A stretch of 64,000 bases of DNA from Lachnospiraceae bacterium (GTDB lineage Bacteria > Bacillota > Clostridia > Lachnospirales > Lachnospiraceae), in assembly GCA_017521195.1 (NCBI GenBank), contig JAFXGP010000088.1, positions 11,203-75,202 of the forward strand, given 5' to 3'. Within the stretch, counting starts at the first letter, position 1. The number at the start of each line of letters is the position of its first letter. The notes under the pieces were generated by a model. That model was given only the letters and a program-made list of their open reading frames with translations, had not been told where the DNA came from and made no database searches. The position numbers and the translations under genes are program-made. Positions 7,674 to 47,381 of this stretch are shown here, in pieces.

Positions 7674-7813
7674 ACTAACTTCCCCCTCAAGAAAACATTC
7701 TAAACAAGCAACTTGCCCATCTTTTATTTTCTATATCATATTTTTCAAAAAATGTTAAATAAAGGGGATAATAACCAACACGCTCTTTCCATATAATGTT
7801 TTCTCACTTATCT

Positions 7814-8563: not shown

Positions 8564-8566
8564 TTT

Positions 8567-8923
8567 TTATGGTTCCTCTTCTAACTCTCTGATACGCTTT
8601 TCCATCTTAGATATGGTTTGTGTCAAGTTTTTAATTTTTTGTGCCTGCTTTGATACGATGGATGTAATGGACATTAAAATCATCATTAAAAATGCTATGC
8701 ATAGTATGAACAATCCGTTCATATTATCTGTGATTCCAAGCAAATGAATAAACCAGGTCAAAGTATAGGGCCAGATTACCATAATTCCTAACACTGCACC
8801 TGCTGCCATCCAAAGCAATGTATATTTTAATTCCAGTTCTTTCTTTTTTAAGAACATAAACAGCATAACAAAGTAAGCTATTACTCCTATAGTCAAAACA
8901 ACTTTTAATGTGGAAGGTAACAT
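8567..8923 (-). CDS. small membrane protein, DUF2304-like (usual partner of GtrB-type polyprenyl-phosphate glycosyltransferases)
   Basis: The track ORF starts at a TTG (8950). The ATG at 8923 has SD AGAGGA 8 nt upstream. There are hydrophobic helices, an LKYTLLWM motif and a C-terminal coiled-coil tail KIKNLTQTISKMEKRIRELEEE. It lies directly downstream of the GtrB-like gene. Confidence 0.55.
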   Translation of the reverse strand: MLPSTLKVVLTIGVIAYFVMLFMFLKKKELELKYTLLWMAAGAVLGIMVIWPYTLTWFIHLLGITDNMNGLFILCIAFLMMILMSITSIVSKQAQKIKNLTQTISKMEKRIRELEEEP

Positions 8924-8962
8924 ATTTTTGTCCTCTTCTATATTTCTCAAACTATTTTTCAG

Positions 8963-13621: not shown

Positions 13622-13629
13622 AACTTCTC

Positions 13630-14976
13630 CTAATTCATAATTTCAGAAAAATCACAATATCGTTTTACAATATCTAATTCCTTATATCTATCTATATTTC
13701 CATCTGTTCGTGGATAATATGGCATGTCATCTGCATTATATACATTAGCAAAATACCAAAAGACATCGCCATATATAGTACTCTTTAACTTTCCCTTTTC
13801 GTTTATACCTAACTTAACATAACCCTCAGCTTCTCTTTCCAACATCCTTAAATACTCAAACTTTTTAATTCCTAATTCTTTCTCTAACTCAGAATATTTT
13901 TCACGATTAATCAAGGCCAACTTATTCATATCTCCAAAGTTCCACATTTTTAACACTTCATACAGGATTTCAAACATTAAAACCGATTCATCTACCGGCT
14001 CTTTGCATACAATAGAATGCACAACATCTATCTTTTCAATTAATTTCTCTTGTATTCTGACATCAACTCCTGTAAACAGATCCGTAACAACTTTTTCTAT
14101 CTTTTCTTGATTTTTTAATTTCCCATTAACTTGAAATTTTTTAAAATAACGTTCATATTTATGGATAAGATTATTATTAATTTTTCCTTTATCCAATATC
14201 AGTGAAAAATTAATAAATTTTTTTAAATACTTCTCAACACTCATCGAATTCTTACTTTGATTTCCTCCAAACATCTCTTCCACAGAATGTTCCAACTGCG
14301 TTCTATCAATAGCAAGAATCACAACGATATTCTCTAACCCTGAAAAAATATGATGAAGTCGTTCCAATACCTTAATTGTATACTGCGGAATACATCGATC
14401 CAATTCATCAACAACAAAAACTATTGTTCTTTCATCAGCAATTTCTCGTAATTTATCCTGCACCTGTTCTATAGTCTTATTAAAATTAAACATTTTATCA
14501 AAAGCATAACTTTCTTTTTCATTTTTATCTTTGTTATCTTTTATATCACTTACAACATTTACTATATTTACTCCTATTTTATTTTCTATATATAATCCTG
14601 CAATTTCTTGTAATTTATCCTGAGCCAATTGCCAACCAGCTTTTACTGTATCTACCATCTCCAAATTAGTAAGTGCTTCATCTTTCCGAATGGAGCTTAA
14701 CATAGCCGAGATAATTGCCACAGCTGGTTCTTCATAATAGTCATATTTCCAACAATTATAATGAAACACAAAATATTTATCATTCGCAGTCTTTTCGCTC
14801 TGTATAATATTTAATTTCTTTTCTAATTGCTCAACAACAAATGTTTTTCCGATTCCCCATCCACCTTCAATGGCAAAACAACATCCCTGTTTGTTTTCTG
14901 ATAATTGTTCTACTACTTTAATCACATTATCTACAAACTTATCACGATCTAATAAATCAACTTTCTCTCTTTCCAT
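13630..14976 (-). CDS. KAP-family P-loop NTPase (soluble, no transmembrane insert)
   Basis: 448 aa. Walker A IEGGWGIGKTF, family-typical NCWKYDYYEEP, and Walker B TIVFVVDELDRC. No hydrophobic stretch of 18 aa or more lies between Walker A and Walker B. Confidence 0.8.
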   Translation of the reverse strand: MEREKVDLLDRDKFVDNVIKVVEQLSENKQGCCFAIEGGWGIGKTFVVEQLEKKLNIIQSEKTANDKYFVFHYNCWKYDYYEEPAVAIISAMLSSIRKDEALTNLEMVDTVKAGWQLAQDKLQEIAGLYIENKIGVNIVNVVSDIKDNKDKNEKESYAFDKMFNFNKTIEQVQDKLREIADERTIVFVVDELDRCIPQYTIKVLERLHHIFSGLENIVVILAIDRTQLEHSVEEMFGGNQSKNSMSVEKYLKKFINFSLILDKGKINNNLIHKYERYFKKFQVNGKLKNQEKIEKVVTDLFTGVDVRIQEKLIEKIDVVHSIVCKEPVDESVLMFEILYEVLKMWNFGDMNKLALINREKYSELEKELGIKKFEYLRMLEREAEGYVKLGINEKGKLKSTIYGDVFWYFANVYNADDMPYYPRTDGNIDRYKELDIVKRYCDFSEIMN

Positions 14977-15090
14977 ACTTGTCCACGTTACCTTTCTTTT
15001 TCATTAATAAAGATCTCTACTCTATGACAACACATTATTCAAAATGCTATACACGACCCCATCGCATATAGCACCTTCTTTTACTCTTAT

Positions 15091-15408
15091 TTAATTAGAA
15101 TCATCCTTCTCCTCACAAAACTCATTGATCAGTTTCATAATTTTCCCTAATCTCTTCATTTGTGCCGGACTCATGTTATCAAATTTGCCATTCCGATTTT
15201 TACCTTCTCCGGTCAACAAATAATCACAACTTGAAGATAGGGCTCTGCTAATCTTCAATAATGTCTCGGCTGAAATTCCTTTTTTACCCATTTCCACTTC
15301 ATACAAAAACTTGGTTGAAATCTCTGCTTTCTCCGCCAGTTCCTCTCTGGTCATGTTTCTTTCTTTTCTTAATTCTTGTATTCTTATCCCCATTTTGTCA
15401 TTCGTCAT
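15091..15408 (-). CDS. XRE-family helix-turn-helix transcriptional regulator
   Basis: 105 aa. Sequence IRIQELRKERNMTREELAEKAEISTKFLYEVEMGKKGISAETLLKISRAL is a canonical HTH_XRE. SD AAGGGGA 9 nt upstream. Confidence 0.85.
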   Translation of the reverse strand: MTNDKMGIRIQELRKERNMTREELAEKAEISTKFLYEVEMGKKGISAETLLKISRALSSSCDYLLTGEGKNRNGKFDNMSPAQMKRLGKIMKLINEFCEEKDDSN

Positions 15409-15766: not shown

Positions 15767-16783
15767 ATGACTTCCAAAAAACACCACTCATTCAACTATG
15801 ATTTTCTACGGTTAATAGCCATGACATTTGTAATTGCAGTTCATACGATTCCCAAACCTTTTGCAGAAAATACCATTGGTTCTATTGCATTCAAAGCAAT
15901 TTTGTTTATGTGTAATGGTTTATTTTATATGCTTAGTGGATGTTTGAATTTAGATAAAGTATTTGAATCCAAAGAAGATTATGTGTCTTTTTATAAAAAT
16001 AAAATAGTCACCATTCTTTTACCATTTATTTTAGGTTGCATTTTTGTTAGTCTGTATACATATGAAGGTGAATTCAGTTTTTCCTTAATTGCCAACGACC
16101 TTATATATGACTTTTTATCAAATCACACCTATATTTTTCTTTGGTTTGTCTATCCTTTAATTGGTATGCTTCTAAGCACACCTTTTTTATCTAAGATGCT
16201 TCATTCCATGTCCGACTGGGAATTAAAACTACTATTTGGAATTGGAATGGGTTGGCAAGTAGCCAGCATTTATTTTGCAAATAATTTATTCGGTGTATTT
16301 GGTTTTTCCGGGTGGTTTTTATCCTCTTGGGTATTTCATTTTTTTATAGGATATTTTATTAAAAGAATTGTCACGCCTAACAATAAATATAAGTTCTACA
16401 TATTTTCTATATTAGGTTTTTTTGTTACAGTTTTAGGTAAATATTTCTTAAAAGATGCCTACACAAATCCCAATGATTTGGCGCCGGCCCATATATTACT
16501 AACAATGGGATTGTTTATTTTAATTACGGAAGAAATAAATATCAATAATACTTTCTTCAAAAAGATTGTTCATATAATTTCTTCACATTCGTTTTCAGTG
16601 TATTTAGTACATGATTATGTAAAAAACCATATTGTTAATCCACTTAACCTTTCCGGTTCTCCATGGATTGCTTTTAGTAAAAATTTTATATTAACACTAT
16701 TTTTAAGTGTCATATTAGCAATTGTAATCGACACTATTTTAATTCGTCCATTACAAAAAATAATTAGGAATATTCTCAAATAA
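15767..16783 (+). CDS. acyltransferase family 3 membrane protein (polysaccharide O-acyl/acetyltransferase type)
   Basis: 338 aa, about 10 TM helices, N-terminal FNYDFLRLIAMTFVIAVHT motif. This is the only plus-strand gene in the window. Confidence 0.75.
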   Translation: MTSKKHHSFNYDFLRLIAMTFVIAVHTIPKPFAENTIGSIAFKAILFMCNGLFYMLSGCLNLDKVFESKEDYVSFYKNKIVTILLPFILGCIFVSLYTYEGEFSFSLIANDLIYDFLSNHTYIFLWFVYPLIGMLLSTPFLSKMLHSMSDWELKLLFGIGMGWQVASIYFANNLFGVFGFSGWFLSSWVFHFFIGYFIKRIVTPNNKYKFYIFSILGFFVTVLGKYFLKDAYTNPNDLAPAHILLTMGLFILITEEININNTFFKKIVHIISSHSFSVYLVHDYVKNHIVNPLNLSGSPWIAFSKNFILTLFLSVILAIVIDTILIRPLQKIIRNILK

Positions 16784-16816: not shown

Positions 16817-18703
16817 TTATCTCACCTCTATAATATAGCCATATGCATTTTCAAATACTCTTTTTTGATTATCTACATATTCCGGATTACAATATACATC
16901 CTGTTTATCACGTCTTACCAATGCGTAATCAACTGCTCTATTCTCTACCATGGAATATTCTATCTCCAAGTCCCATGTCCACGTAGGAATCTGATTGGTA
17001 ATCGCATAGAAGTCGTCAAATCTGGGCCAATCACATACCCAGGCTACCGAGTAACCTGCTTTCGTCAGCTTGGCTGCTTCATTGCATAATTCCTGTTCTA
17101 AAGGACTCATCTTTATCTCATTATAGCGGTCGGTAACAGCATCCAGATTCGTATGTATAAGATTAAAATAAGCCGCAGCCCGATCCTCCAGGCACATAGA
17201 CTCATCTCTTTCTCTCAATTGCTCATCCACATGAATTAAGCTCCCTGCAAACAAAATCGTACACATCAGACCATATGCAACTAAAAATTGCTGCTGGGAT
17301 TTATCTATATCTGCAATCACCCTCACCATAATCGCAAAGCACAAAAGCCATAATAAATTATAATTCTTATTATAATAATATAAACTTATAAATCCCATTA
17401 TATATAATAAAAACTGTGCCCCTATGTATCCCAAGGTTAAAACAAATACCACTATATATTCGTCTAATTTACGTTTGCATAATGTATTCCATAAATAAAC
17501 CAATACAAAAGGAATCAATAATACAAAATTAGAATATAAATCGTAATAAGAAACTCCCGGAATTGCCAATCCAGATATGATGGAACCATCCCATCCTGTT
17601 GTTGCCACTTCCGGCTGTGTTACATCTTCTACACTATCCCTTTCTGTACTTACCGCCTCTGCTACAACTTCGTTTTCTACACTTGCAACTTCAGACACGA
17701 CCTTAGCTTCCAATTCCGGTTCCGGCGCCGACACACTGGTAAATATTCCAAAATATACATAGACAATACACAATACTCCTGCCAAAAACAAAGAAAATGC
17801 CGTATATAGGATTTTTTCTTTCCAAAATCCTTTTCTCTCGCCCCAGATGTATAGGAACTGTGCTCCGAACAAGACCGGCGCAAAGTATACATAACAAACA
17901 CACAATGCTGTATTGGCAAAAAAAGCCGCTATCATTAACTGCAGTGAACTAACATTTCCGCTTCTGTATTCTTTGAACAAATATAAAATCAGCGTTACCA
18001 ACAGAATGGAGGTCCCCCAATAGGTAAATCCATATAACATATTATTTAAAGGGTATCCCAACATATATATAATGGTTAAAATAAGACCTATTATCTTCTT
18101 AGGCAAACTTCTTAATTCTTCTCCAATCAACGCCCAGAATGTAACACCACTTAAAGCAAATAAAAAAGTCTGAAATGCCAAAAATACTTTATAATAATAC
18201 AAAGTTCCCAAGAATGGTGTAATAAACATCAGGTTAAGTCCATCTCTCAATTTTTGGAAATACATGGAACCAATTGTCTGTGTTCTTACTACGTCTTCTG
18301 CCCACATCAGATGTATGGAACCATCACCGGATTTAAAGCGAAATACCTCAAACCATCCGCTATATCTGGAATAAGAAATCAATAATGATACTGCTGCCAC
18401 TACCACAACAGCTGCCATATCCTTATAATCCCAATAATATTTCTGTTTTTCTTTTCCACCCTTTATATAAAGCATTAAAAGTATCACAGTGGCAATAATA
18501 TCACAGATAGAAACACTAATTAAATTGATTGGCACATGAAACAAATTAAGTAATCCTGCACTTGTAGCTTCATAACACCACACTAATAAAAAGCTGAAGA
18601 CAAAATAAGACACACCATTTACTCTTTTTTCATTTTTCTTATAACTAAATAGTGATATTAGTAATACAATAAAACTTATAAAATATAAAATCGAACCTAC
18701 CAT
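16817..18703 (-). CDS. large polytopic membrane protein, function unknown (GT-C-like glycosyltransferase or polymerase candidate)
   Basis: 628 aa. About 9-10 TM helices are followed by an acidic low-complexity linker (APEPELEAKVVSEVASVENEVVAEAVSTERDSVEDVTQPEVATT). About 4 more TM helices and a ~130-aa soluble C-terminal domain follow. I recognise no family motif with confidence. Confidence 0.4.
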   Translation of the reverse strand: MVGSILYFISFIVLLISLFSYKKNEKRVNGVSYFVFSFLLVWCYEATSAGLLNLFHVPINLISVSICDIIATVILLMLYIKGGKEKQKYYWDYKDMAAVVVVAAVSLLISYSRYSGWFEVFRFKSGDGSIHLMWAEDVVRTQTIGSMYFQKLRDGLNLMFITPFLGTLYYYKVFLAFQTFLFALSGVTFWALIGEELRSLPKKIIGLILTIIYMLGYPLNNMLYGFTYWGTSILLVTLILYLFKEYRSGNVSSLQLMIAAFFANTALCVCYVYFAPVLFGAQFLYIWGERKGFWKEKILYTAFSLFLAGVLCIVYVYFGIFTSVSAPEPELEAKVVSEVASVENEVVAEAVSTERDSVEDVTQPEVATTGWDGSIISGLAIPGVSYYDLYSNFVLLIPFVLVYLWNTLCKRKLDEYIVVFVLTLGYIGAQFLLYIMGFISLYYYNKNYNLLWLLCFAIMVRVIADIDKSQQQFLVAYGLMCTILFAGSLIHVDEQLRERDESMCLEDRAAAYFNLIHTNLDAVTDRYNEIKMSPLEQELCNEAAKLTKAGYSVAWVCDWPRFDDFYAITNQIPTWTWDLEIEYSMVENRAVDYALVRRDKQDVYCNPEYVDNQKRVFENAYGYIIEVR

Positions 18704-28342: not shown

Positions 28343-28465
28343 TTAAAATCCCTGATATAAAACAGATACATTTTCCACCATCAGTACCGCATACACTGCA
28401 ATTAACAGTTTTGCTACTAATAGAATAAATTGTATTTTATCCGGTAATTGTTCAAACTTCTTCAT
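28343..28465 (-). CDS. unannotated 40-aa single-pass membrane micro-protein, DltX-like (C-terminal YxxF)
   Basis: Below the ORF-track size cut-off. It reads ATG (28465) ... TAA (28343) and encodes MKKFEQLPDKIQFILLVAKLLIAVYAVLMVENVSVLYQGF. SD AAGGAAA lies 6-7 nt upstream. It starts 21 nt after the MBOAT stop, and its stop is 3 nt before the next ATG. The shape is one TM helix plus a C-terminal tail ending in Y-Q-G-F. Confidence 0.55.
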   Translation of the reverse strand: MKKFEQLPDKIQFILLVAKLLIAVYAVLMVENVSVLYQGF

Positions 28466-28486
28466 AGTTTCCTTCACACTTACACT

Positions 28487-29689
28487 TTATCTAAACATAT
28501 TTATTAATGCTCCCCAAGTATCGTATCCCACAAAGGCAAAGGAGATACAGATATAGCCCCAAGTAACACCGATTTCGATCCATTTAACAATAGGTTTACT
28601 CTGATATTCTTTGTATTTCTTCTTACCCATTTTCTTCTTCAGGGTATTGTTAAACCACATACTTCCGGATACGCCTAAACCTTCTAACAAACCATATATA
28701 ATATAGTTGATGGTATTGCCGTGCCAGATACCTGCAATGAAAAAAGTAACAAATAACATCACATACTGGATAATATTAATATCCGCTTTTTCAAACTTGG
28801 TAATTCCCCATTTAAAAATCGGAGAATAAATATAATCACGAATCCACTGGGACAGGGTGATATGATGTCTGTTCCAGTATTCGGATAAACTTCTTGCCAA
28901 ATAAGGCTTGTTGAAGTTTTCCGGAATAGTAAATCCTGCCAGCTTTCCTGCTGCAATCACAATATCGCAGAAACCTGAAAAGTTAAAATAAATATACCAA
29001 GCATTCAGAAATGTAAATGCCAAGTAAATCACTAACAATGTAACACCACTCCAACGTTCAAAATTGCGGAAGGCTTTATCTGTGTAATTATGTATGACAC
29101 CGGAAATCAAAAATACTTTGATATATCCGTTTAACATACGGTTCAACTGGCTGTAAATTTCCTGCTTTTCCAAAGGCTGTTTTTCTTCCTTACGGTCTTC
29201 CAGATAATCCCGAAATCTCATAATCGGACCGCAGATAATGGTATAGAAGGATAAGAGGTAATTCACATAATCCAGAAGACGGATTTCTTCTCCTTCTTCC
29301 TTTAGCCAATCATACTGCATTACAAAATCAATTTCTCGGAACAAAATATAAGAAAGTCCCAGCAGCTTCCATGCAAATAAATAGGGAATATTTAACACAC
29401 CAAAAATCCAGTCGTATTTCATTTCATATGCGAAACATACTACCAGTGCTATAATAATCCATCTCTTATTCTTCACTCTTGGAGTCAGGAGGTAGGGAAA
29501 CAGAATAAAAAATGCTGCAAACAATAACTGTCCGATACTACGGATTCCCACACCAAACACAAATAGGTTTAATCCAAGAAAAATCAATTCTCTGTATTTC
29601 CAATTGTTTCTTAAAAAAATAGGTGAAATCACTAAAAGTATAACAAACCAAAGTGATTCAATTGCAACCTCAAACATAGTTCTCCTCAT
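28487..29689 (-). CDS. MBOAT-family membrane O-acyltransferase (DltB/AlgI-like)
   Basis: 400 aa, polytopic. Motifs EYWNRHHITLSQWIRDYIY and FFIAGIWHGNTINY (conserved MBOAT His). Confidence 0.85.
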   Translation of the reverse strand: MRRTMFEVAIESLWFVILLVISPIFLRNNWKYRELIFLGLNLFVFGVGIRSIGQLLFAAFFILFPYLLTPRVKNKRWIIIALVVCFAYEMKYDWIFGVLNIPYLFAWKLLGLSYILFREIDFVMQYDWLKEEGEEIRLLDYVNYLLSFYTIICGPIMRFRDYLEDRKEEKQPLEKQEIYSQLNRMLNGYIKVFLISGVIHNYTDKAFRNFERWSGVTLLVIYLAFTFLNAWYIYFNFSGFCDIVIAAGKLAGFTIPENFNKPYLARSLSEYWNRHHITLSQWIRDYIYSPIFKWGITKFEKADINIIQYVMLFVTFFIAGIWHGNTINYIIYGLLEGLGVSGSMWFNNTLKKKMGKKKYKEYQSKPIVKWIEIGVTWGYICISFAFVGYDTWGALINMFR

Positions 29690-29715
29690 TCCATGATTTC
29701 ATATTTCATCATGAA

Positions 29716-29949
29716 TTACGCTAATTTCTTTTCAATCAATGCAATAAATTCGCCTACGTTTTTCAGTTTCATAACTTCTACTGTAGTAAATTTCACGCCG
29801 AATTTCTTTTCTACAGCTACAATCAACTGAATGTGTGTGAGAGATGTCCAATCTTCCACATCTTCTGCTGTCATTTCATCAAAAAGCTCCAATTCGTCAT
29901 CATCAAATACATCCTGAAATACTTCTGTTAAAGTTTCTTTTACATTCAT
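29716..29949 (-). CDS. acyl/peptidyl carrier protein (DltC-like)
   Basis: 77 aa, acidic. The Ser attachment context is EDVEDWTSLTHIQLIVAVEKKFG. The start lies 1 nt after the FkbH-like stop. Confidence 0.8.
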   Translation of the reverse strand: MNVKETLTEVFQDVFDDDELELFDEMTAEDVEDWTSLTHIQLIVAVEKKFGVKFTTVEVMKLKNVGEFIALIEKKLA

Positions 29950-29950
29950 C

Positions 29951-31702
29951 TTAATTTATCTCCTTTATCCAAATCTTTTTATTATATTCTTTTGTTAAAT
30001 CATATCCATATTTATTCTCCGCGATTTCTTCAAATCCTAATCCGGGATAGAAATCTTTTACCATACGGTTCTTTGCGGTAGGAATGTATTCTCCCACCAA
30101 TTTACTGCACCCCATACTTCTTGCCGCATCACATACATGAGAAAAGGCAAATTCTTCCACACCTCTCTTTAATACACGACAGCTCATAACCCAGGTATCA
30201 GCAAAACATTCTTCTCCGTCTTTTCTCAGAATAATACAGGAAATGATTCCGTAATCGCTGAATTTATCCTTTAAGGACACTGCCAAAAGCTTGGTATTTT
30301 CTTCCTGCATCATTTGTTCAATAGAAGCTTCCGTATAACGGATGGTGCGGAGATTAAACTGATTGGATTTGTTAATTAACTGTGCAAAACGTTCCTTGCT
30401 GTATTCATCAATTTCGTCCACACTTCCGACCATATCCAATGCCTGCAAATATTCGTCATAGTTTACAAAGCTGCTTTCCAGTTCCTGGCGTTTGCTGTTC
30501 TGTAAATAAGACTGGGTACGTTTGAAATCTTCTCCTGTCAACTGTCCCCATTCAAATGGCATACATAAGGATAATGCCTGTACATAATCAGCCGGATCTT
30601 CCGGTACATCTACTACCAAAACTTCCGGTACAAATTTCTTTACAATTTCCCGTTCCGCCGGATTGTCATCGAAGAATACCAGAGAGTCCACACCGATATT
30701 CAGTTTAGATGCAATGGTACGGATATTACCTGCTTTGTCTTCCCAGTTGGCAATGAAACAAGAGATATCGTCCAGTTTCAAAATCATCTTATCATTTTTC
30801 TCAAACGGCTCTTTGGCAATATCTTCTTCGTTTTTACTGCATACTGCCAAAATAACACCACGTTCTTTTAACTGTAATACATACTGTTGGAAAGCTCTGT
30901 AGGATTCCCCGATGGCATTGTTTGGATCCAACTGGATTCCCATACAACCGTCATCACCTACAACACCACCCCAAAGGGTATTATCTAAGTCTAATACCAG
31001 ACACTTTTTCACTTTACCGGTTAATGCCAGAATCTGTTTTACAAACACTTCTGCAGCAACTCCGATATAATCCATACGGAACCCGGTTTTGGACAGATAA
31101 TAGGAAGAATTGTCAAACCAGTTGATTTTACCAACCACTCCTGCCCAATAATCCATATCCATAATGGTTACATTACCGCCACGTTTTTGTTCTAACTTAG
31201 CATTAATTCTCTTGTAATAATAAGAGCGGGAATATTCATAATTAGATTCCAGATTGCCCAATGCTCTCTCAATAGGGAGTACAAAGTTGGCCTGAAGAAT
31301 CTGACATCCCAAAGAAGTCTCTAATTTACTCCAGATCCCTTGATACAACTGCACCTGCTTGTCTGCCAGCTGTTCTACAGCGTCTGCATCGCTTCCCAGT
31401 ACCGGAAATTCTTTAATATCCTTAATGGATGGCAACAAGATTACCATGGATGGTTTGAATTCATACAAATCAGAGTCATCATTTAACACATCCATTAAAA
31501 TGCCATCATATTCCCCTTCATAGATATTGGCATCGATGCCTTCTTCATGTAAAAGGAAACGGAGTACACTTACAAAATGCTGTATGCTGTAAGACCCGAG
31601 AACCGCAATTCTTACATCCTTTTCTCCTGCCACATAAGACTTGGCATAACGTCTTGCCAATTTTAATAACTGAGGTATTTCTTCTATGTTCCAAACGTTC
31701 AT
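29951..31702 (-). CDS. FkbH-like HAD-IIIC family enzyme (candidate glyceryl-/acyl-ACP loader)
   Basis: 583 aa. HAD motif I is LVLDLDNTLWGGVVGDDG. The C-terminal domain carries the conserved Cys context VMSCRVLKRGVEE. Confidence 0.75.
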   Translation of the reverse strand: MNVWNIEEIPQLLKLARRYAKSYVAGEKDVRIAVLGSYSIQHFVSVLRFLLHEEGIDANIYEGEYDGILMDVLNDDSDLYEFKPSMVILLPSIKDIKEFPVLGSDADAVEQLADKQVQLYQGIWSKLETSLGCQILQANFVLPIERALGNLESNYEYSRSYYYKRINAKLEQKRGGNVTIMDMDYWAGVVGKINWFDNSSYYLSKTGFRMDYIGVAAEVFVKQILALTGKVKKCLVLDLDNTLWGGVVGDDGCMGIQLDPNNAIGESYRAFQQYVLQLKERGVILAVCSKNEEDIAKEPFEKNDKMILKLDDISCFIANWEDKAGNIRTIASKLNIGVDSLVFFDDNPAEREIVKKFVPEVLVVDVPEDPADYVQALSLCMPFEWGQLTGEDFKRTQSYLQNSKRQELESSFVNYDEYLQALDMVGSVDEIDEYSKERFAQLINKSNQFNLRTIRYTEASIEQMMQEENTKLLAVSLKDKFSDYGIISCIILRKDGEECFADTWVMSCRVLKRGVEEFAFSHVCDAARSMGCSKLVGEYIPTAKNRMVKDFYPGLGFEEIAENKYGYDLTKEYNKKIWIKEIN

Positions 31703-31740
31703 GTATTCCTCACATTCCGCTGTGATTACAGCTTTTTCCC

Positions 31741-32667
31741 CTACTGCATAATGCGGGAGAATTCTTCTTTCATAAAATCTGTATATTTTAATTGCGCCTC
31801 TTTGGTAAGATGGGCACGGTCTTCATAATCTTCCCAGTCAAATATATTTCTACTGTCGATGTAAGCAATTCCATGTTCTTCCAAAAACGGTTTCAATTCA
31901 TTATCAATGTATTGATTAAAGATAATTCCTTCGTTGGAATCTGCATGAGCCTGTGTAATATACACGAAGTTCACCACCACGTTAGTTCTTTGTTCTAATT
32001 CCAGAATCTTATCTTCAAATTTTTTCTTCTGTTCTTCACTAATATATTCAAAATCCTTAGTAAAAGTATTCCACTCTTCCAACTGAGCTTCGTAAACCTC
32101 CGGACTGTCTTCCAAAGCCTGTACTTTTAAAGTCAGCTTTTCTACTAGGTTGTCCAGATTATGCTCAATGGCAAATAAGTACCTTTTAATCGCTGAAGTC
32201 CAGTAACTTTTACGTTCCAACTCCAAATCCTGATTGACGTAAAAATCACCCCAAGTATTAATATTGGCTACTGCTGCCATGTTATGGTATTCTGCTTTAC
32301 GTATAGTACTGGTTCCCATGTCCAACAACAGATAATTATCTTTGGTATAAGAATAGCCTTTCTGCTCCAAATAATCTAATAATAAGATTAATTCATCCAA
32401 GCTCTGGGCACTGGTTGCCATTAACTCCACTTCCGGGAATGCTTCCATGTCGATACCACTCTGAGCTGTGGAAGCACCGAATTGCACTATCTTTACCCGT
32501 TCACCCTTGTCCAGGATGCGTTCCACATCAATGAAATATAAATCTCCCAGGGCACCCTCTCCGGCCACGGATACATTGACTGCAACAATGATGGCTGCTG
32601 CCGCAATTGTCGCAACTAAAATACCAATGCATGTTTTTAAATATTGATTCAATCCATATTTTTTCAT
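31741..32667 (-). CDS. membrane-anchored SGNH/DltD-like extracytoplasmic O-acyltransferase
   Basis: 308 aa. There is an N-terminal TM anchor (IGILVATIAAAAIIVAV), a Ser-block FGASTAQSG and a C-terminal DxxH block (EDRAHLT). Confidence 0.55.
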   Translation of the reverse strand: MKKYGLNQYLKTCIGILVATIAAAAIIVAVNVSVAGEGALGDLYFIDVERILDKGERVKIVQFGASTAQSGIDMEAFPEVELMATSAQSLDELILLLDYLEQKGYSYTKDNYLLLDMGTSTIRKAEYHNMAAVANINTWGDFYVNQDLELERKSYWTSAIKRYLFAIEHNLDNLVEKLTLKVQALEDSPEVYEAQLEEWNTFTKDFEYISEEQKKKFEDKILELEQRTNVVVNFVYITQAHADSNEGIIFNQYIDNELKPFLEEHGIAYIDSRNIFDWEDYEDRAHLTKEAQLKYTDFMKEEFSRIMQ

Positions 32668-32678: not shown

Positions 32679-33887
32679 TTAATTGTTTTTATTTATTCCT
32701 ACTTGCTTCTTAAATGAAAGGAACTGCCACCAATAGACTTCTTCCGTTCCTTCCAGATGAAGTATTTCACTAAGATACACTCCAAGTAAAATCAAAACAT
32801 AATTTCTTCCGTTGAATACGGAAATGGTATGAGCTTCAAACAACTGATAAAAAGCAAACATCAGAACCATTACATAGATTCCGTAGTCCTTTCTTTTCTT
32901 ACTATTCCAAAGCAATGCACCGTTAAGATACATATACACAAGCCCCGGAACAATTCCATACCAGTAGAATAATCTGACAATTCCCATGTCAAAATATCGG
33001 GTATTGTCCGGACAGGAAAACAAACTCCATCTTGTCAGATCCGCTCTAAAGTACGCATATCGAAGTCTGGCCGAGAAAATGGTAAAATCAATTTTATCCA
33101 ACCACAAATGACTCCATCCCTTATGATTAAACCCTACTCCATACCAGGCTACCACAACTGCCAGAACTACCGTCATGGCAATGGCAACACAACCAAATAT
33201 GTAGACCCATTTTTGGTCTCTCATCTTCGGACAATAGACAAAAAAGGCGGCCACCATAATAGATATGGCTGTTGTCATAAGTCCCATTCGGGAAGTGGAA
33301 AAACAATATGCCAGCACATTGATTCCCATAAGAATCCCCAGTTTATACAGGTTCAGTTTATCAAATTTAAGATAAATCCACAATAGTGTTAACATCAGCA
33401 CCATGCAATGGAAGGAGTTCGGATGTCCCATACCAAAGGTATATCTGGTTTCTAAGATATTATTACGGAAGATATCTGTTAAAGTCATGTCACCGTAAAT
33501 TCCCGTAATAGCCAATCCCATAATTAGAAGACATCCTATCAAAGTCACTTTAAAAACATAGGATAGCACTTTCTTGGCATCCAACCCTTTGCAGGCTGCA
33601 CACAAAGCAACTACACGGATAATTTCTTCCCTGTCAGTACATATATAAGAACAGATACCCATAAGTACAAAAAACGCCATAACTATCCATTCCTTACGGC
33701 TGTACTTGGTAAGAACAATTTTTCCTACAAACAATACGAAAAACAACCGGAACCACCAGGTCTGATATTGGATAATATAATTACTCTTATCCAGAATCAC
33801 CATGAAAAGTTCTCCTGTTAATCCTGCATAAAACAGACCATTTTTCAACTGATTCAGTTTTCCTTCTGTTAACAACTTTCCATTCAT
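32679..33887 (-). CDS. O-antigen ligase/polymerase-like membrane protein (Wzy_C/WaaL family)
   Basis: 402 aa, about 10-12 TM helices, with an external-loop motif TFGMGHPNSFH typical of the O-antigen ligase family. Confidence 0.6.
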   Translation of the reverse strand: MNGKLLTEGKLNQLKNGLFYAGLTGELFMVILDKSNYIIQYQTWWFRLFFVLFVGKIVLTKYSRKEWIVMAFFVLMGICSYICTDREEIIRVVALCAACKGLDAKKVLSYVFKVTLIGCLLIMGLAITGIYGDMTLTDIFRNNILETRYTFGMGHPNSFHCMVLMLTLLWIYLKFDKLNLYKLGILMGINVLAYCFSTSRMGLMTTAISIMVAAFFVYCPKMRDQKWVYIFGCVAIAMTVVLAVVVAWYGVGFNHKGWSHLWLDKIDFTIFSARLRYAYFRADLTRWSLFSCPDNTRYFDMGIVRLFYWYGIVPGLVYMYLNGALLWNSKKRKDYGIYVMVLMFAFYQLFEAHTISVFNGRNYVLILLGVYLSEILHLEGTEEVYWWQFLSFKKQVGINKNN

Positions 33888-33906: not shown

Positions 33907-35829
33907 TTATTTCAGTTCAAAGTAATTGTTAAGTGTTTTATCATCAAACATATAATTATAGATAATGTTATGATATCTGTTGATTTCCGTATCGCATTTC
34001 TCATCTGCTTCCTGATAAGAAATATGATTTTCTGCTGCATCTATAATACCTACCGTATTTATTACCGGATATTCTTCATACAAATCCATAAGGTATTTCT
34101 GGTGCCCGGTCATAGGTAATCCCAAAACCTCCATAGCATAGGACGACAAATAATTTAAACTCATATCTACATCCTGTTTTTCTTCGATGTCATAATTAGT
34201 CCAGATAAAATAAGGTGTGATATACATTTTCTGACGTTCCGACTGAGGCATATTGTTTAGGGAATATCCTGTCATAGTTTCCACAAACTCAGATTCCACT
34301 GCCGGCTGATGATCTCCGAAGAAGATGACTGCCACCGGTTCTTCATAAGCTTTCAGATATTCCAAAAATTCCCCCAAAGCCCGATCACTTTCATGTACCA
34401 GATTCAGATAATTACTTGTCTCTTCATAATTCTTGCCTTCCAAAGAAATCTCTTTTCTCAGCTGTTCGATTTCTCCGGTGTATCCTCCATGATTCTGAAC
34501 CGTTACATCAAAGATAAACATAGGTTCAGAACCCTTATTTTCTTCTAAGAGTTCTTTTACCACTTCATACTGACTGCTGTCCGTTGCATACTGACGGATA
34601 TAAGTTAAAGAATCCATATCTTCTTCAAAAAACGTACGGTCTACACCAAAATAATTATAGACAGATACTCTGTTCCATCCATAGGAACCATAAGGATGCA
34701 TAAACACGGTTTCATAACCCAAAGCTTTCATCTGGGTAAAAAGATTTTCTTTCTCTTCATGCAGATACATCTGATAGGGAACCACTCGTTCCGAAAAATA
34801 TCCAATACTGTTACCGGTCAAAAATTCGTATTCAGAATTAGCTGTATTTCCACCATAAATAGAAACATACAAATCTCCTTGGATGGTGTTCTCTTTTAAA
34901 CTCTTTAGTACCGGTAAAACTTCTTTGCTGGTTTCAAATTCTCCCAACACTTCCAAATCCGCGAAACTTTCATTCATAATGGCAATGATATTAGGATATT
35001 CTGCAGACACCGCAGCTTCATCAGAACTATACTCCTGTAATTGCTGTTGTAATTCTTCCGCTTGATATTCTTCCGGTTCACTAATCATAATCTCTTTTAA
35101 CTGCAGATACAGGTTGTAAGCAAATCCATTGGTTTCATGGGACCAATAATCCGCTTTTACTCCACCAAAAGAAATTATACTATTGGTACTAAGTAGCAAA
35201 AGCCAAAATATAACAGACAAGCCTGATAATATCACTCTTACCTTCCTCGGAAATTCCTGTTTTTCTTTTCTGTATTGCAAGAATGAAAGTATGACCAAAA
35301 ACAACACTCCTGCCAGAAAACAAAGACCGGCTCCTGTCTTTAATATAAATTCCATGTCAAAGTTCAACGTGTAACTACCGGCCACCGTCATGGCTGTTTT
35401 CAACGAGAAAATATCCCCGCCGCTAAGAGGTGTGCTTCGGATTGCCTTCACCACTGCATTCACAATCCCAAGTATCACAAAGAATACTGTAGGAATCCAT
35501 ATGGTAATACTCCACTTTTTCATCACCGAAACCAGTAGCATATAAATGCTTAAATACAACAGGATATTTAATATTCCTGTTTTGTTAATCCCGGTAACCA
35601 CTTTTCCGATAGCCATTAAATCATTAAAATAACAAGCACTTACGGCCAATAATAGTACCATCAGGTAGCTACTAAGGATTGTTTTTTCTTTCTTTTCTGC
35701 CACCCACATCCCAATGGATATCAAGGCAAAAATTACACATGAAACTATGCTTGCTCTTCCAATCAGAGCAAGGGCCCCAAGAACCGCCAGTGATGCAATT
35801 ACACTGCTATACTTCCATGAATACTTCAT
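33907..35829 (-). CDS. LtaS-like phosphoglycerol (alkaline-phosphatase superfamily) transferase
   Basis: 640 aa. A multi-TM N-terminus is followed by an extracellular sulfatase-fold domain. Its motifs are IIAIMNESFAD, GGNTANSEYEFLTG (Thr nucleophile context) and IFFGDHQP. Confidence 0.75.
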   Translation of the reverse strand: MKYSWKYSSVIASLAVLGALALIGRASIVSCVIFALISIGMWVAEKKEKTILSSYLMVLLLAVSACYFNDLMAIGKVVTGINKTGILNILLYLSIYMLLVSVMKKWSITIWIPTVFFVILGIVNAVVKAIRSTPLSGGDIFSLKTAMTVAGSYTLNFDMEFILKTGAGLCFLAGVLFLVILSFLQYRKEKQEFPRKVRVILSGLSVIFWLLLLSTNSIISFGGVKADYWSHETNGFAYNLYLQLKEIMISEPEEYQAEELQQQLQEYSSDEAAVSAEYPNIIAIMNESFADLEVLGEFETSKEVLPVLKSLKENTIQGDLYVSIYGGNTANSEYEFLTGNSIGYFSERVVPYQMYLHEEKENLFTQMKALGYETVFMHPYGSYGWNRVSVYNYFGVDRTFFEEDMDSLTYIRQYATDSSQYEVVKELLEENKGSEPMFIFDVTVQNHGGYTGEIEQLRKEISLEGKNYEETSNYLNLVHESDRALGEFLEYLKAYEEPVAVIFFGDHQPAVESEFVETMTGYSLNNMPQSERQKMYITPYFIWTNYDIEEKQDVDMSLNYLSSYAMEVLGLPMTGHQKYLMDLYEEYPVINTVGIIDAAENHISYQEADEKCDTEINRYHNIIYNYMFDDKTLNNYFELK

Positions 35830-36752
35830 TCTTCCTCACATTCCGGCACTAACCAATCGGTATAGATGCCTTTTACGCCATATTCGCGTAACTGATTTGC
35901 CGTGGTTTCATCATTTACGGTATATACCAAAACATCAACATTCCACGCATTAAAATATTCCACAATCTCTTCACTGATTCTGCCGGTTTCCATCGCTACT
36001 ACAGGAATTTTATTTTCCAGACAAAATCCCAGAATTTCTTCATAAATCGGACTAACATAATGATATAAGGTATATACATAATGTTTAAACGGATAAATGC
36101 TTTGCATAATCTCATAAGATTTAGGATTGTATATCTGGATAATCATACGATCCAGAATATCCTTTGTTTCCCGTATGCTTGCTTCTTCCACCAAAGCAGA
36201 CACCAGAGTAATTACATCCTCATTGGAACTGCCCATGGAATTATCCCACTTAATGTCTGTCATCATATAAACATCCGGATAAATTTCCATCAAATCCATC
36301 AATTTCTTCAAATCTACGGGTGTATATTTACCTTCTATTTTTTCCTGCATAAACGAAGAGTATTCTATCTCTTCTCCATTTGCATCCAGATACTCATGGG
36401 AACAAACCACTTCTCCCTCTTTTGTCACCACTAAATCTACTTCATATACCCGGAATCCATTTTCATAAGCTTCTTCAAAAGCCTCCAAAGAATTGGTATA
36501 ATCACTCTCGTCAATTCCACCCATAGCATGTGCCAATAAAGTATCTTCCTTCAGCCACTCTGCCATGTTTTCTGCCAAGGGGTCATACTTGTCCAAATCC
36601 ACCGGATTCAACCAATATCGGATATAGGTCTTCACCATGGTTCCGTAGCCATGTCCCCTAAGACTGTTCAGCCCCAAGAATGCTACTGCCAAACCAAGGA
36701 TAACAAATATAAGAATCAATATTTTCTTCTTATTCTTTGAAAAAAATGTCAT
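35826..36752 (-). CDS. membrane-anchored glycerophosphodiester phosphodiesterase family (GDPD) protein
   Basis: 308 aa. There is an N-terminal TM anchor, then LLAHAMGG...TNSLEAFEEAYENGFRVYEVDLVVTKEGEVVCSHE (GDPD pattern). 4-nt overlap with the upstream gene. Confidence 0.65.
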   Translation of the reverse strand: MTFFSKNKKKILILIFVILGLAVAFLGLNSLRGHGYGTMVKTYIRYWLNPVDLDKYDPLAENMAEWLKEDTLLAHAMGGIDESDYTNSLEAFEEAYENGFRVYEVDLVVTKEGEVVCSHEYLDANGEEIEYSSFMQEKIEGKYTPVDLKKLMDLMEIYPDVYMMTDIKWDNSMGSSNEDVITLVSALVEEASIRETKDILDRMIIQIYNPKSYEIMQSIYPFKHYVYTLYHYVSPIYEEILGFCLENKIPVVAMETGRISEEIVEYFNAWNVDVLVYTVNDETTANQLREYGVKGIYTDWLVPECEEE

Positions 36753-44314: not shown

Positions 44315-46192
44315 CTAAAATTTTCTCTGGCACATCCATTCCTGGAACATTAAAATGTACCATATCTGAATTCTCCATTGTCCATTATTAATATAATCGT
44401 TCCAAACATCCCAAACCACATCCGGATCCAGAATTCCCTGCTGTTCCAAAGTCCTACGGTCTATCAGGCTTTCCGCCCAACCACGAAGTTCCGGCTCTTT
44501 TAACCATTTTGTAATCGGAATGGCAAACCCTCGTTTCGGTAAATCCATCAGTTCCTTCGGAACATATTTATACAAAATATTTCTAAGTACTTTTTTAGTT
44601 ATCCCATCCTGATATTTATATTCCATCGGAAGAGTCCATGCAAACTCAACCACGTCCTTATCCAACATCGGGATTCGGGATTCCAATGACACTGCCATAC
44701 CTGCTCTGTCTACTTTTACCAAGATATCATCAGGATGATACATCAACAAATCCATCAGCATAATGTTGTGTCTTGTTTCTTTTAAATAACCCTCCTGGTA
44801 CTGGGTATATTTGAACGGAAGCATATTTTTATCCAGACAAATTTCTTTTGCCACCGGCTCTTCTTCATTGGATATTTCATAAAGCTGGGCTGCACCCTTT
44901 GCTCCCAAAAGTCCTGCTTTTACATTCAGCACCTTACTTTTCTTAACCGGTGCATTAAGAATCAGACTGCTTGCCAGTTTCCGGATTGGATATGGGATAT
45001 TTTTCATTTTCCCCCAAATACGGTCAATAGAATTATAGGAATGATATCCACAAAATAATTCATCTCCGGCATCTCCGCTTAAAGATACTGTTACATGTTC
45101 TTTCGTCATCTTACTAACCAGATAAGTAGGTATCTGGGAACTGTCCGCAAAGGGTTCTCCAAAAATATAAGAAAGGTTTGGAATTACTTCTCTTGCATCT
45201 TTTTCTGAGATATACAATTCTGTATGTTTTGTTCCCAAATGTTCGGCAATCTGTTTCGCCACTGCTGCCTCATTCATCTTAGGATCGTCTACACCGATGG
45301 TAAAGCTTCTTACCGGCTGACTACTCAAAGACTGCATCAATGCCACTACGGTAGTACTGTCAATACCAGAGGAAAGAAAGGCCCCTACAGGAACATCCGC
45401 TACCATCTGATCTGCTATGGATGCTTTTAACAAACGTTCCAATTCTTCCGTAGCTTCTTCTTCACTGCCCTTAAACGGATTCTGCTCCCCATACTTTGCC
45501 ACTTCTCTCATAGACCAATAGTTTTCGATATTGAACTCTTTATAAGGTGCTTTTAAAGTAAGAACACATCCCGGTTCCAATTTAAAAATATTCTCATATA
45601 CACTATAAGGTGCCGGAATATATCCATGAATAAAATAGATCGGTAATGCTCCTTTGTTGATTTCATTATCGAAGCCATCCAATTCAGCAATGCATCCGAT
45701 GTCAGAAGCGAATACAAAACTATCCTTTACCCAACCATAATAAAGTGGTTTTTCACCCACACGATCACGAAGTAAAAACAATTCCTTCTTTTCCCTGTCA
45801 TAAAGGGCAATGGCAAACATACCTTTGCAGAGGCTGATTCCTTCTTTTACACCATAGTTTTCAAAAAGTTCCAGCAATACTTCTGTATCAGATGTACCCT
45901 TAAAGTTGTCTACCTTACCTTCATTGATTAATTTTTCTCTTAATTTTCTATGGTTATAGATTTCCCCATTAAAAGCAATGACAAATCTTCCACTATGGGA
46001 TGTCATAGGCTGGGCTCCATTGGGTGACAAATCCACAATAGACAAACGACGATGACCCAAAGCTACACTTCTATCAGTTTCAATAAAGCTACCACCTGCA
46101 TCCGGTCCTCTATGGAACATTCTTTCGTTCATCTTATCAATATTCTTTTGTATGTCACCTTTCCAGTTACATAAACCTGCTATACCACACAT
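44315..46192 (-). CDS. asparagine synthase (glutamine-hydrolysing)-like amidotransferase, copy 1 (uronamide-forming candidate)
   Basis: 625 aa. N-terminal nucleophile MCGIAG, motif LSIVDLS...QP, and PP-loop FLSSGIDSTTV. Confidence 0.85.
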   Translation of the reverse strand: MCGIAGLCNWKGDIQKNIDKMNERMFHRGPDAGGSFIETDRSVALGHRRLSIVDLSPNGAQPMTSHSGRFVIAFNGEIYNHRKLREKLINEGKVDNFKGTSDTEVLLELFENYGVKEGISLCKGMFAIALYDREKKELFLLRDRVGEKPLYYGWVKDSFVFASDIGCIAELDGFDNEINKGALPIYFIHGYIPAPYSVYENIFKLEPGCVLTLKAPYKEFNIENYWSMREVAKYGEQNPFKGSEEEATEELERLLKASIADQMVADVPVGAFLSSGIDSTTVVALMQSLSSQPVRSFTIGVDDPKMNEAAVAKQIAEHLGTKHTELYISEKDAREVIPNLSYIFGEPFADSSQIPTYLVSKMTKEHVTVSLSGDAGDELFCGYHSYNSIDRIWGKMKNIPYPIRKLASSLILNAPVKKSKVLNVKAGLLGAKGAAQLYEISNEEEPVAKEICLDKNMLPFKYTQYQEGYLKETRHNIMLMDLLMYHPDDILVKVDRAGMAVSLESRIPMLDKDVVEFAWTLPMEYKYQDGITKKVLRNILYKYVPKELMDLPKRGFAIPITKWLKEPELRGWAESLIDRRTLEQQGILDPDVVWDVWNDYINNGQWRIQIWYILMFQEWMCQRKF

Positions 46193-46222
46193 ACTTTATT
46201 CCTCATTTATTGCAATATGCTT

Positions 46223-47317
46223 TTATTTCATCTTCGAAAGAAGATATTCTTCCCACTTACGATTTACTTTGTCCGGATGAAGTTCCTCTGTAAGTTTGTA
46301 AGCATTTCTACTATATTTTTCCCATAATTCTTCATCAGTAAGTAATGTTCTCATAGCCTTTGCCATAGGCTCAACTTTCCCTACCGGTACCAGAATTCCA
46401 TTTTCTTTTCCTTTCATCAACATTCGTGGTCCTCCGCAAGGACAATCGGTACTGATACTTGGAATCCCCAGTGCCATGGCTTCCATTAAGGAATTTGGCA
46501 TTCCTTCTGTATTGGAAGAAAGAACAAAAATTTTAGATTTTTCAATTCTCGTTTTCACGTTACGGATAGGTCCCGGTAAAAATATTTGATTCTTATACGG
46601 AGTCTTTTGTGCATACTCAGTTAATTTCTCATGGTCTTCACCACTTCCGTACAAAATCAAATTCACTTCCGGAAAATCTCCTGCAATTTGGCAAAAAGCA
46701 TCGATAATTAACTTCTGATTTTTATTGCCATCCAATCTTCCTACCGTTACAATCTCATTTTTTCTTGCTCCTTCATAGTAGTCATCTATGAAAAGCGGAT
46801 TCAACGGATTTTCCAAAATAACCGCCTTTTTTTGAATCCATTTCGGGAAATAAGCCTTTGCATCAGGAGTCTGTAAAACAAGCCCATCTGCTTTTCCCAT
46901 CAACGTTTTGGCAAGAATTTCCTGCATTTTATCATAATATTCTGCCTTTGGTTCCCCTCGGACGGAAGCCACTACCGGAATCTTCAGTCCCCAGGCAGTA
47001 AGAATCGCCATGAAATTATTTTTCCCTATAAAAGAAACAATCACATCCGGCTTTTCACTTTTCCAGATATTCCGCAATTTCATAAAACGACGTTTAAAAT
47101 TAACTATTCTGTTATTTGTAATTTCATCCTCCGTAATATCCGAAAAAATCCTTGTTGCACCATCCGGCAAATCATACTCCGGGTGATAAACCGTGGTGGT
47201 AACAATCGTCACTTGATGTCCTTTTGCCAAAAGTGATTCTGTCAAATTCAAAATCACCCTCTGAGCTCCACCTTTGATTAAACTATGCACATAAAATACA
47301 AATTTTTTTGATTTCAT
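46223..47317 (-). CDS. GT4-type glycosyltransferase (paralog of 49329..50432)
   Basis: Motif FVLSSNTEGMPNSLMEAMALGIPSISTDCPCGGPR. The start at 47317 (MKSKKFVFYV) has SD AAGGGAAAAG upstream. The track ORF extends to 47344. Confidence 0.8.
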   Translation of the reverse strand: MKSKKFVFYVHSLIKGGAQRVILNLTESLLAKGHQVTIVTTTVYHPEYDLPDGATRIFSDITEDEITNNRIVNFKRRFMKLRNIWKSEKPDVIVSFIGKNNFMAILTAWGLKIPVVASVRGEPKAEYYDKMQEILAKTLMGKADGLVLQTPDAKAYFPKWIQKKAVILENPLNPLFIDDYYEGARKNEIVTVGRLDGNKNQKLIIDAFCQIAGDFPEVNLILYGSGEDHEKLTEYAQKTPYKNQIFLPGPIRNVKTRIEKSKIFVLSSNTEGMPNSLMEAMALGIPSISTDCPCGGPRMLMKGKENGILVPVGKVEPMAKAMRTLLTDEELWEKYSRNAYKLTEELHPDKVNRKWEEYLLSKMK

Positions 47318-47381
47318 ATCTTTTCCCTTTGTGAATGTATGCATTCAAAATGTTTTTATCCATTTGCTTAGTTATAAAGAA

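Follow-up and report, generated by a model that had tools for sequence, protein, structure and literature searches.

A probable Dlt-like acylation cassette with an FkbH-type loader in a Lachnospiraceae surface-glycan locus, with a predicted glyceryl donor

Which acyl group would a Dlt-like export machine transfer if its carrier protein were charged by an enzyme other than the DltA ligase? This question is raised by five adjacent genes in a 64-kb stretch of DNA (the window) from a Lachnospiraceae bacterium (GCA_017521195.1, contig JAFXGP010000088.1, contig positions 11,203-75,202). Transmembrane acylation of envelope polymers is currently explained by two types of donor, acetyl-CoA (PatA, AlgI, OatA) and D-alanyl-DltC (Dlt). 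The five genes encode an FkbH-family enzyme, an acyl carrier protein (ACP), a membrane-bound O-acyltransferase (MBOAT), a microprotein with a single transmembrane (TM) segment and an SGNH-fold protein. Our analysis indicated that they probably form an operon-embedded, carrier-protein-dependent MBOAT-SGNH acylation system of the Dlt-like kind, which would draw its acyl group from glycolysis and place a glyceryl ester on a surface polymer.

Components of the five-gene cassette

The five open reading frames (ORFs) of the cassette were found at positions 28343-32667 of the window, all on the minus strand (Table 1). The gaps between them were 38, 1, 26 and 21 nt, the ACP gene starting 1 nt after the FkbH stop codon, and the next gene lay 3 nt away. 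A scan of the Pfam matches and annotations of the window genes found an AMP-binding (DltA-type) domain in none of them across the whole 64 kb. The initial annotation of this DNA, which had described five packed minus-strand genes without an adenylating DltA, was confirmed on both points. A promoter and terminator scan gave counts that were not above those of shuffled sequence.

The loader candidate scored above the cutoffs of NCBIfam TIGR01686 (312.9 bits, cutoff 146.65), the HAD-IIIC model TIGR01681 (72.3 bits, cutoff 35.75) and Pfam FkbH_N (PF21211; 60.5 bits, cutoff 27). An FkbH profile matched at least 593 encoding stretches in GTDB species representatives, of which the best 80 loci were taken for analysis (individual loci carry L numbers below). 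The residues D238-L-D-N-T242 (D240 included), S289, K323, D345-D346 and S507-C508-R509 were invariant in all 80 relatives. Judged by sequence, the FkbH family assignment is secure. The only relative of the protein in the PDB was the uncharacterised BF1531 (3slr). Characterised FkbH enzymes that work with a standalone ACP convert 1,3-bisphosphoglycerate into glyceryl-S-ACP in polyketide pathways (PMC7489565).

The carrier protein matched Pfam PP-binding (PF00550) with 27.4 bits (cutoff 20.8). Its phosphopantetheine site, Ser36, was invariant in 69 of 69 relatives, and so was W34. Against the DltC equivalog NF003464 it reached 17.6 bits (cutoff 68); it is a generic PP-binding carrier. The MBOAT ORF matched the Pfam MBOAT model with 86 bits. 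Its best NCBIfam match was DltB TIGR04091, and the score of 172 bits, below the equivalog cutoff of 375, marks it as a DltB-type MBOAT and not DltB itself. Alignment with the solved DltB (6bug/8jem) extended over residues 20-388 (E = 7e-23). The histidines of the WHG and NRHH motifs aligned with those of DltB, the catalytic WHG histidine being conserved. The C-terminus (...ALINMFR) carries no Tyr motif. Gene callers favour a start at 29677, which gives a protein of 396 aa.

The microprotein begins with an ATG at 28465, with a GAAGGA Shine-Dalgarno sequence upstream, and was also called as a gene in independent assemblies. It contains one hydrophobic TM segment and ends in VLYQGF. No Pfam or NCBIfam model matched it, even at E = 10. 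Its counterpart in L088, a diverged relative of the locus, was 78% identical; the two genes differed by 12 synonymous and 9 non-synonymous codons, and the C-terminal half was nearly unchanged. The acyl-shuttle motif of DltX is a C-terminal FxYxxF, whose Tyr carries the acyl group between the MBOAT and the SGNH protein (PMC12148441). The Tyr and the final Phe of VLYQGF stand in register with this motif.

The 308-aa protein had no match in Pfam (E = 10), in NCBIfam or, by phmmer, in the PDB, and a 42-sequence profile of its family matched nothing in Pfam or the PDB. A Pfam DltD or GDSL match was absent for the window protein and for 41 of the 42 family members. The family is small, with 46 clusters at 50% identity among 1.84 billion proteins. 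G64, S66 and H286 were the only invariant columns in the 42 members, down to 14-25% identity. We assign G64 and S66 to a predicted G-x-S of SGNH block I and H286 to the predicted block V His. An AlphaFold2 model built on the 42-member alignment reached a predicted local distance difference test score (pLDDT) of 86 and a predicted TM-score (pTM) of 0.81; a first model, from 10 near-identical sequences, had a pLDDT of 70 and weak Foldseek E-values. The top Foldseek matches of the model were all SGNH/GDSL proteins with probability 1.00. Among them, the DltD structures of four species (3bma, 7dxm, 6o93 and 6pfx) gave the largest coverage, with query TM-scores (TMq) of 0.45-0.47 and E-values of 5e-4 to 4e-3. 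Like DltD, the protein is anchored by a TM helix at its N-terminus.

Most of what the initial annotation had proposed for these genes was upheld. The FkbH-like HAD-IIIC enzyme with DLDNT and SCR Cys motifs and the 77-aa carrier protein stood as described, and the DltB/AlgI-type MBOAT with WHG proved to be of the short DltB type. The terms "DltX-like" and "DltD-like" held in part. For the microprotein, the motif, the single-TM architecture and the neighbourhood agreed with the name; for the 308-aa protein, the membrane-anchored SGNH fold and the neighbourhood did so. Membership of the DltX or DltD sequence families did not follow, the microprotein having no match to a hidden Markov model (HMM). 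The Dlt-type logic of carrier, short MBOAT, separate Tyr-motif microprotein and anchored SGNH protein is backed by motifs, folds and synteny.

Table 1. Positions of the cassette genes and of two neighbouring genes in the window
Feature	Position	Strand	Evidence and predicted role
SGNH-fold protein, 308 aa, N-terminal TM anchor	31741..32667	-	AlphaFold2 model and Foldseek, invariant G64/S66/H286; predicted extracytoplasmic acyl-transferase, functional counterpart of DltD
FkbH-family enzyme, 583 aa: FkbH_N, HAD-IIIC phosphatase and C-terminal Cys acyl-transfer domain	29951..31702	-	TIGR01686, TIGR01681, PF21211; predicted glyceryl-S-ACP loader
Standalone acyl carrier protein, 77 aa	29716..29949	-	PP-binding above cutoff
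Short DltB-type MBOAT, 400 aa, no fused C-terminal Tyr motif	28487..29689	-	Pfam MBOAT, alignment with DltB 6bug/8jem
Single-TM microprotein, 40 aa, ends VLYQGF	28343..28465	-	ORF, Shine-Dalgarno sequence and motif; predicted acyl-shuttle peptide, functional counterpart of DltX
LtaS/sulfatase-domain membrane protein, 640 aa, GacH-like (context, outside the core cassette)	33907..35829	-	Pfam Sulfatase 121 bits; GacH 5wcx/5u9z, E = 4e-24
GDPD (glycerophosphodiester phosphodiesterase) gene, overlaps the GacH-like gene (context)	35826..36752	-	PF03009 in the annotation of identical contigs

Conservation and variation across genomes

An ACP homologue was present in 74 of the 80 loci, and in 60 it lay on the same strand as the FkbH gene and no more than 300 nt away. 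Fifty loci contained an MBOAT, which was within 2.5 kb in 45. The MBOATs were of two forms. Thirty-three were long (>445 aa) with a fused C-terminal FxYxxF, as in PatA and AlgI, and 15 were short (370-445 aa) and had no such motif. A small single-TM ORF ending in Y-x-x-F adjoined 12 of the 15 short MBOATs. The residue before its Tyr was hydrophobic, and the typical ending was (V/I/L)YQ(G/N/S/K/A)F. A Y..F ending occurred in 27 of the 7928 small ORFs of these loci (0.34%), and 12 of the 27 were the MBOAT neighbours.

The five-gene order of the window was repeated in a rumen Lachnospiraceae (L001), in an Erysipelotrichaceae (L010) and in L088. The SGNH protein of L088 was 64% identical to that of the window, and the cassette proteins as a group shared 63-95% identity, compared with 51-56% for the flanking GT4 and GacH-like genes. 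When the 80 loci were searched iteratively with an HMM of the SGNH family, L001 and L010 alone were retrieved; the partners in the other loci were too divergent for HMMs and were compared by motif alignment. Distant members of the family (21-26% identity) again adjoined FkbH-ACP, and in L090 such a relative was accompanied by FkbH-ACP, an MBOAT and a 42-aa ORF ending in LIYQGF. The partner position in other phyla was occupied by unrelated-looking single-TM proteins of 310-395 aa, which aligned at the G-x-S and C-terminal D-x-x-H blocks. Some partners in fused-type loci passed the Pfam thresholds for Lipase_GDSL_2 or AlgX.

FkbH-ACP-MBOAT cassettes were found in Firmicutes, Bacteroidota, Planctomycetota, Acidobacteriota, Nitrospirota, Myxococcota, Verrucomicrobiota, Cyanobacteria, Spirochaetes and Proteobacteria, and most of the fused-type relatives were also located in glycan loci. 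The cassette is no rarity of this genome: it is one of a large and widely distributed family whose members are either split or fused. The initial annotation had made its reading depend on co-conservation of the genes, and this was observed in the 80 loci and across phyla. Sinorhizobium meliloti provided a further example. Forty pSymB records had the order MBOAT, 409-aa protein, ACP and FkbH (L092, CP140934.1, 1032913-1037948), with the rkpR/ABC genes for K-antigen export about 5 kb away. The MBOAT of this cassette has 522 aa and ends in FLYQGF. The 409-aa protein has no Pfam match and takes the position of the SGNH partner, so its annotation as a "TonB-dependent receptor" is probably wrong.

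Several variant loci carried additional genes. FkbH-ACP was followed by a MaoC-type dehydratase of ~138 aa and an SDR of ~250 aa in L003, L004, L007, L008, L011, L072, L078 and L090 (for example L008 6624-7886 and L090 11476-12619), often without an MBOAT. By analogy with FkbH-DH-KR loading modules, this pair is expected to convert 2,3-dihydroxypropanoyl-ACP to pyruvoyl-ACP and then to lactyl-ACP. By the same analogy, the MaoC-SDR loci suggest a set of acyl donors for glycans that all derive from glycerate. B12-binding radical-SAM enzymes (535-547 aa) or an S-adenosylmethionine methyltransferase lay next to FkbH-ACP in L012 (10062-11684), L017 (6191-7834), L023 (6191-7834) and L090 (8516-9409), which hints at methylated acyl groups. 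We also noted a small protein of the VOC/Glyoxalase_4 fold (methylmalonyl-CoA epimerase fold) beside the cassette in L057 (9968-10366), L092 (4844-5311), L020, L037, L054, L062 and L073. It may act as an acyl-thioester epimerase that turns D- into L-glyceryl, and it was absent from the window.

L087, a Murimonas intestini-type contig, had FkbH-ACP in a glycan locus (5148-9002) together with a hexapeptide-repeat acyltransferase and an FrhB/ferredoxin-like protein, and no MBOAT. This arrangement resembles the same donor module adapted to transfer in the cytoplasm. FrhB-like ORFs of a similar kind preceded FkbH in L003, L007 and L037. The tailoring genes of the variant loci lend indirect support to a glycerate-derived acyl group. 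None of the MaoC, SDR, radical-SAM and methyltransferase genes was present in the window cassette, so unmodified glyceryl is the simplest prediction for it.

Proposed route of acyl transfer

With gene content, motifs, folds and co-conservation established, we inferred a pathway by joining FkbH chemistry (PMC7489565) with the route worked out for Dlt and PatAB, in which the acyl group passes from the donor to the MBOAT, the Tyr of a C-terminal hexapeptide, the SGNH Ser and the polymer (PMC12148441). From its family membership, the HAD domain of FkbH would strip the 3-phosphate of 1,3-bisphosphoglycerate, and the glyceryl group would move via Cys508 to the phosphopantetheine on Ser36 of the ACP. 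By homology with DltB, the short MBOAT would take up glyceryl-S-ACP at the cytoplasmic face and hand on the acyl group, via a tunnel lined with His, to the Tyr of VLYQGF on the outer face. The fold and invariant residues of the SGNH protein suggest that Ser66 would then accept the acyl group and, with His286 as base, esterify a hydroxyl of an extracytoplasmic polymer. The fourth step, the choice of this polymer, is the weakest. The acceptor could be the heteropolysaccharide that the surrounding Wzx-type locus makes, and glycerol-phosphate side chains from the GacH-like transferase are a possible site on it.

The proposed route follows the Dlt pathway closely. In both, one operon would encode the carrier protein that serves as donor, a DltB-type MBOAT that is short (~400 aa) and has a conserved catalytic His, a stand-alone microprotein with one TM segment and xYxxF at its C-terminus, and a transferase of the SGNH fold that is anchored by its N-terminus and has Ser and His. 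The cassette differs in having no DltA, with the FkbH/HAD-IIIC enzyme as its predicted loader. With FkbH in place of DltA, the acyl group should be glyceryl and not D-alanyl. Moreover, Dlt stands alone, whereas the cassette lies within a glycan locus of the Wzx type, and its DltX and DltD counterparts were matched by motif and fold only. A true D-alanylation system with an unlinked DltA might explain why DltB was the best NCBIfam match of the MBOAT and why the ACP gave a faint DltC match. However, both scores were far under the equivalog cutoffs, and the ACP gene is translationally juxtaposed to FkbH, a pairing that is nearly universal in the relatives. We consider this explanation barely credible. 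A genuine dlt operon was rejected on the two sub-cutoff scores and the lack of DltA in the window.

MBOAT-SGNH pairs with a Tyr acyl-shuttle motif are also the basis of the PatA/PatB, AlgI/AlgJ/AlgX and WssH-type systems. Among the relatives of the cassette, those of the fused type (33 of the 50 MBOAT loci) share with the PatA/AlgI type a long MBOAT that ends in FxYxxF. Those systems, however, use acetyl-CoA and have no carrier or loader, in contrast to the FkbH-ACP of the cassette family, and the window cassette has in addition a separate microprotein. Another reading is that FkbH-ACP and the MBOAT, microprotein and SGNH genes are chance neighbours, the MBOAT being an ordinary acetyl-CoA O-acetyltransferase and glyceryl-ACP serving a cytoplasmic step. 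FkbH-ACP can evidently serve cytoplasmic acyl transfer, as it occurs without an MBOAT in Murimonas intestini, with the hexapeptide acyltransferase, and in L003-L011. Such independence of the two gene sets is very unlikely in the window. The ACP and MBOAT genes are 26 nt apart and are linked in 45-50 of the 80 loci across many phyla, and the window SGNH family was seen only beside FkbH-ACP wherever the context was readable. The only characterised member of the short DltB type also uses a carrier-protein donor (PMC12148441).

The FkbH and ACP genes resemble the modules of polyketide pathways (FK520 FkbH/FkbJ, OzmB, tetronate Mad7/Mad8-type), in which an enzyme with HAD DxDxT and a catalytic Cys stands next to a dedicated standalone ACP, and the predicted product is the same glyceryl-S-ACP from 1,3-bisphosphoglycerate. 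Their surroundings differ. The partner in the cassette is a membrane acyl-export machine and not a polyketide synthase, a FabH-like tetronate synthase or oxidising and methylating enzymes of the FkbK/I/G type, and the genes lie among those for surface-glycan biosynthesis in a gut Firmicute. Glyceryl as the exported group is the simplest reading by analogy with known FkbH activity. The initial comparison with the glyceryl esters of gellan is loose: starting from 1,3-bisphospho-D-glycerate, FkbH would yield D-glycerate, and gellan carries L-glycerate.

The same machine could instead export another acyl group, or enzymes encoded elsewhere could turn the ACP-bound glyceryl into lactyl, pyruvoyl or methylated glyceryl. 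Many related loci point in this direction, since the MaoC and SDR, B12-radical-SAM, methyltransferase or VOC-fold proteins added to FkbH-ACP imply that the acyl group is often tailored. To our knowledge, moreover, biochemical work on FkbH includes no member from a glycan locus. Nevertheless, no tailoring gene lay between or beside the five genes in the window, L001, L010 or L088, all FkbH catalytic residues were invariant, and every characterised FkbH uses 1,3-bisphosphoglycerate (PMC7489565). An acyl group other than glyceryl appears unlikely here, although less so than an independent function of the two gene sets.

Besides the glycan context of this FkbH, several observations weigh against the glyceryl export pathway. 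At the phosphopantetheine site the window ACP reads WTSL, in contrast to WDSL in 68 of 69 relatives. The Thr is kept in the diverged L088, whose ACP is 95% identical, which excludes a sequencing error. The first motif position of the microprotein is Val and not Phe, and neither the microprotein nor the SGNH protein matched a DltX, DltD or SGNH sequence model. The TM-scores with DltD were modest, small SGNH esterases were equal by E-value, and the modelled fold is compatible with transferase and with esterase activity.

Acceptor polymer and surrounding genes

The GacH-like gene is the next-but-one gene upstream of the cassette and encodes a membrane protein of the LtaS family, the closest solved relative of which is GacH. 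GacH is the phosphoglycerol transferase of the group A streptococcal carbohydrate. As in the GacH decoration of streptococcal cell-wall polysaccharide, the window protein could add glycerol phosphate outside the cell, and it may make a glycerol-phosphate acceptor on the glycan. Such side chains might possibly then be esterified, much as D-Ala is placed on the glycerol phosphate of lipoteichoic acid; the evidence for this analogy is weak. The gene order GDPD, GacH-like, cassette, GT4, GT2, GT11 was kept in L088. In difference from the GacH system, the link to the cassette was seen only in the window and the L088 lineage, and we know of no acylation system alongside GacH. GacH as a general cassette partner was rejected, as a GacH-like gene was found near the cassette in none of the 80 GTDB loci. 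The GDPD and the 402-aa membrane protein next to the cassette were also searched for in all 80 loci and not found.

This absence counts against the locus glycan as acceptor, as does the position of the cassette outside any glycan locus in L001, L010 and L014. Taken together, the two observations imply that the acceptor may be a housekeeping envelope polymer or lipid, such as lipoteichoic acid, as for the dlt operon, with the position in a glycan locus being incidental. In L001, L010 and L014 the flanking genes look like housekeeping genes and not glycan genes, being pyrG- and uvrC-like as judged by their N-terminal sequences only. The better conservation of the cassette proteins than of the neighbouring glycosyltransferases also suggests a mobile, self-contained module. 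In the window and L088, however, the cassette lies between the GacH-like transferase and glycosyltransferases in one co-directional array. The glycan-locus position of most fused-type relatives, and of the S. meliloti cassette beside the rkp K-antigen export genes, likewise argues against a housekeeping acceptor. We regard such an acceptor as the lesser prospect, yet one to be taken seriously, and give the locus glycan no more than moderate weight.

Each component and mechanistic step has a precedent, and the combination and the predicted product appear new. Neither the microprotein nor the SGNH family is represented by a model in NCBIfam (June 2026), and the MBOAT passes none. A full-text literature search, which did not extend to the key DltX paper (Schultz et al. 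2023), found no description of an FkbH-ACP-MBOAT system. The only related mention was the annotation of an fkbH-domain gene, cj1302, in the flagellin-glycan locus of Campylobacter jejuni. A 2025 paper by the groups that worked out these mechanisms describes the non-Dlt MBOAT/SGNH pathways as having neither a carrier protein nor a DltX-like microprotein (PMC12148441). The carrier and microprotein of the window cassette, and the pairing of a PatA-like MBOAT with FkbH-ACP in the fused relatives, contradict this generalisation.

We see about an even chance that FkbH-ACP is the donor module of a large unrecognised family that, in many phyla, places glycerate-derived esters (glyceryl, or tailored lactyl or methylated groups) on surface glycans via MBOAT, Tyr shuttle and SGNH protein. 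If so, carrier-dependent transmembrane acylation and DltX-type microproteins would not be peculiar to D-alanylation, contrary to current statements in the field. The chemistry of the cell surface in gut commensals, rhizobia and environmental bacteria would then be coupled directly to central glycolysis. The predicted modification would consist of hydrophilic, uncharged glycerate esters fed directly from glycolysis. Esters of this kind, which are base-labile, are readily lost when polysaccharides are worked up in the standard way and may for that reason have escaped notice. In gut Lachnospiraceae they could shape phage receptors, immune recognition and glycan degradability. The cassette family also offers a test of whether the Tyr-shuttle mechanism of DltX generalises, and S. 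meliloti pSymB is genetically tractable.

The window as a whole is one large surface-glycan region. The gene array fills all 64 kb and runs on the minus strand throughout, except for a single gene at 15767-16783. Its right (upstream) end holds a CapD-like dehydratase, a DegT aminotransferase and an initiating Bac_transf phosphoglycosyl transferase, and many GT2, GT4 and GT11 genes and a Wzx flippase lie downstream of these. Three Acyl_transf_3 genes, two asparagine synthases and a second export system of the Wzm/Wzt type were also present. The latter is an ABC export pair (Wzt_C) at 4491-6619. Positions 12839-15408 contain a helix-turn-helix regulator and a KAP-family NTPase, followed by AP-endonuclease-2-like and DAO-like genes, between two glycan gene blocks. 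The G+C content is 30-33% in the first 24 kb and 36-40% beyond. This step, together with the regulator and NTPase genes between the blocks, suggests that the window joins loci of different origin.

Two ORFs, of 402 aa (32679-33887) and 628 aa (16817-18703), had no Pfam or NCBIfam match. The former adjoins the cassette and has many hydrophobic segments; it could be a Wzy-type polymerase. The two asparagine-synthase (glutamine amidotransferase) paralogues, of 625 aa each, are interleaved with GT4 genes at 44315-49259 and may amidate glycan uronic acids. A PylC-like ATP-grasp ligase and an Orn/Arg/DAP-decarboxylase-like gene (57870-60036) lie just downstream of the initiating phosphoglycosyl transferase and may serve to decorate the glycan with an amino acid or an amine.

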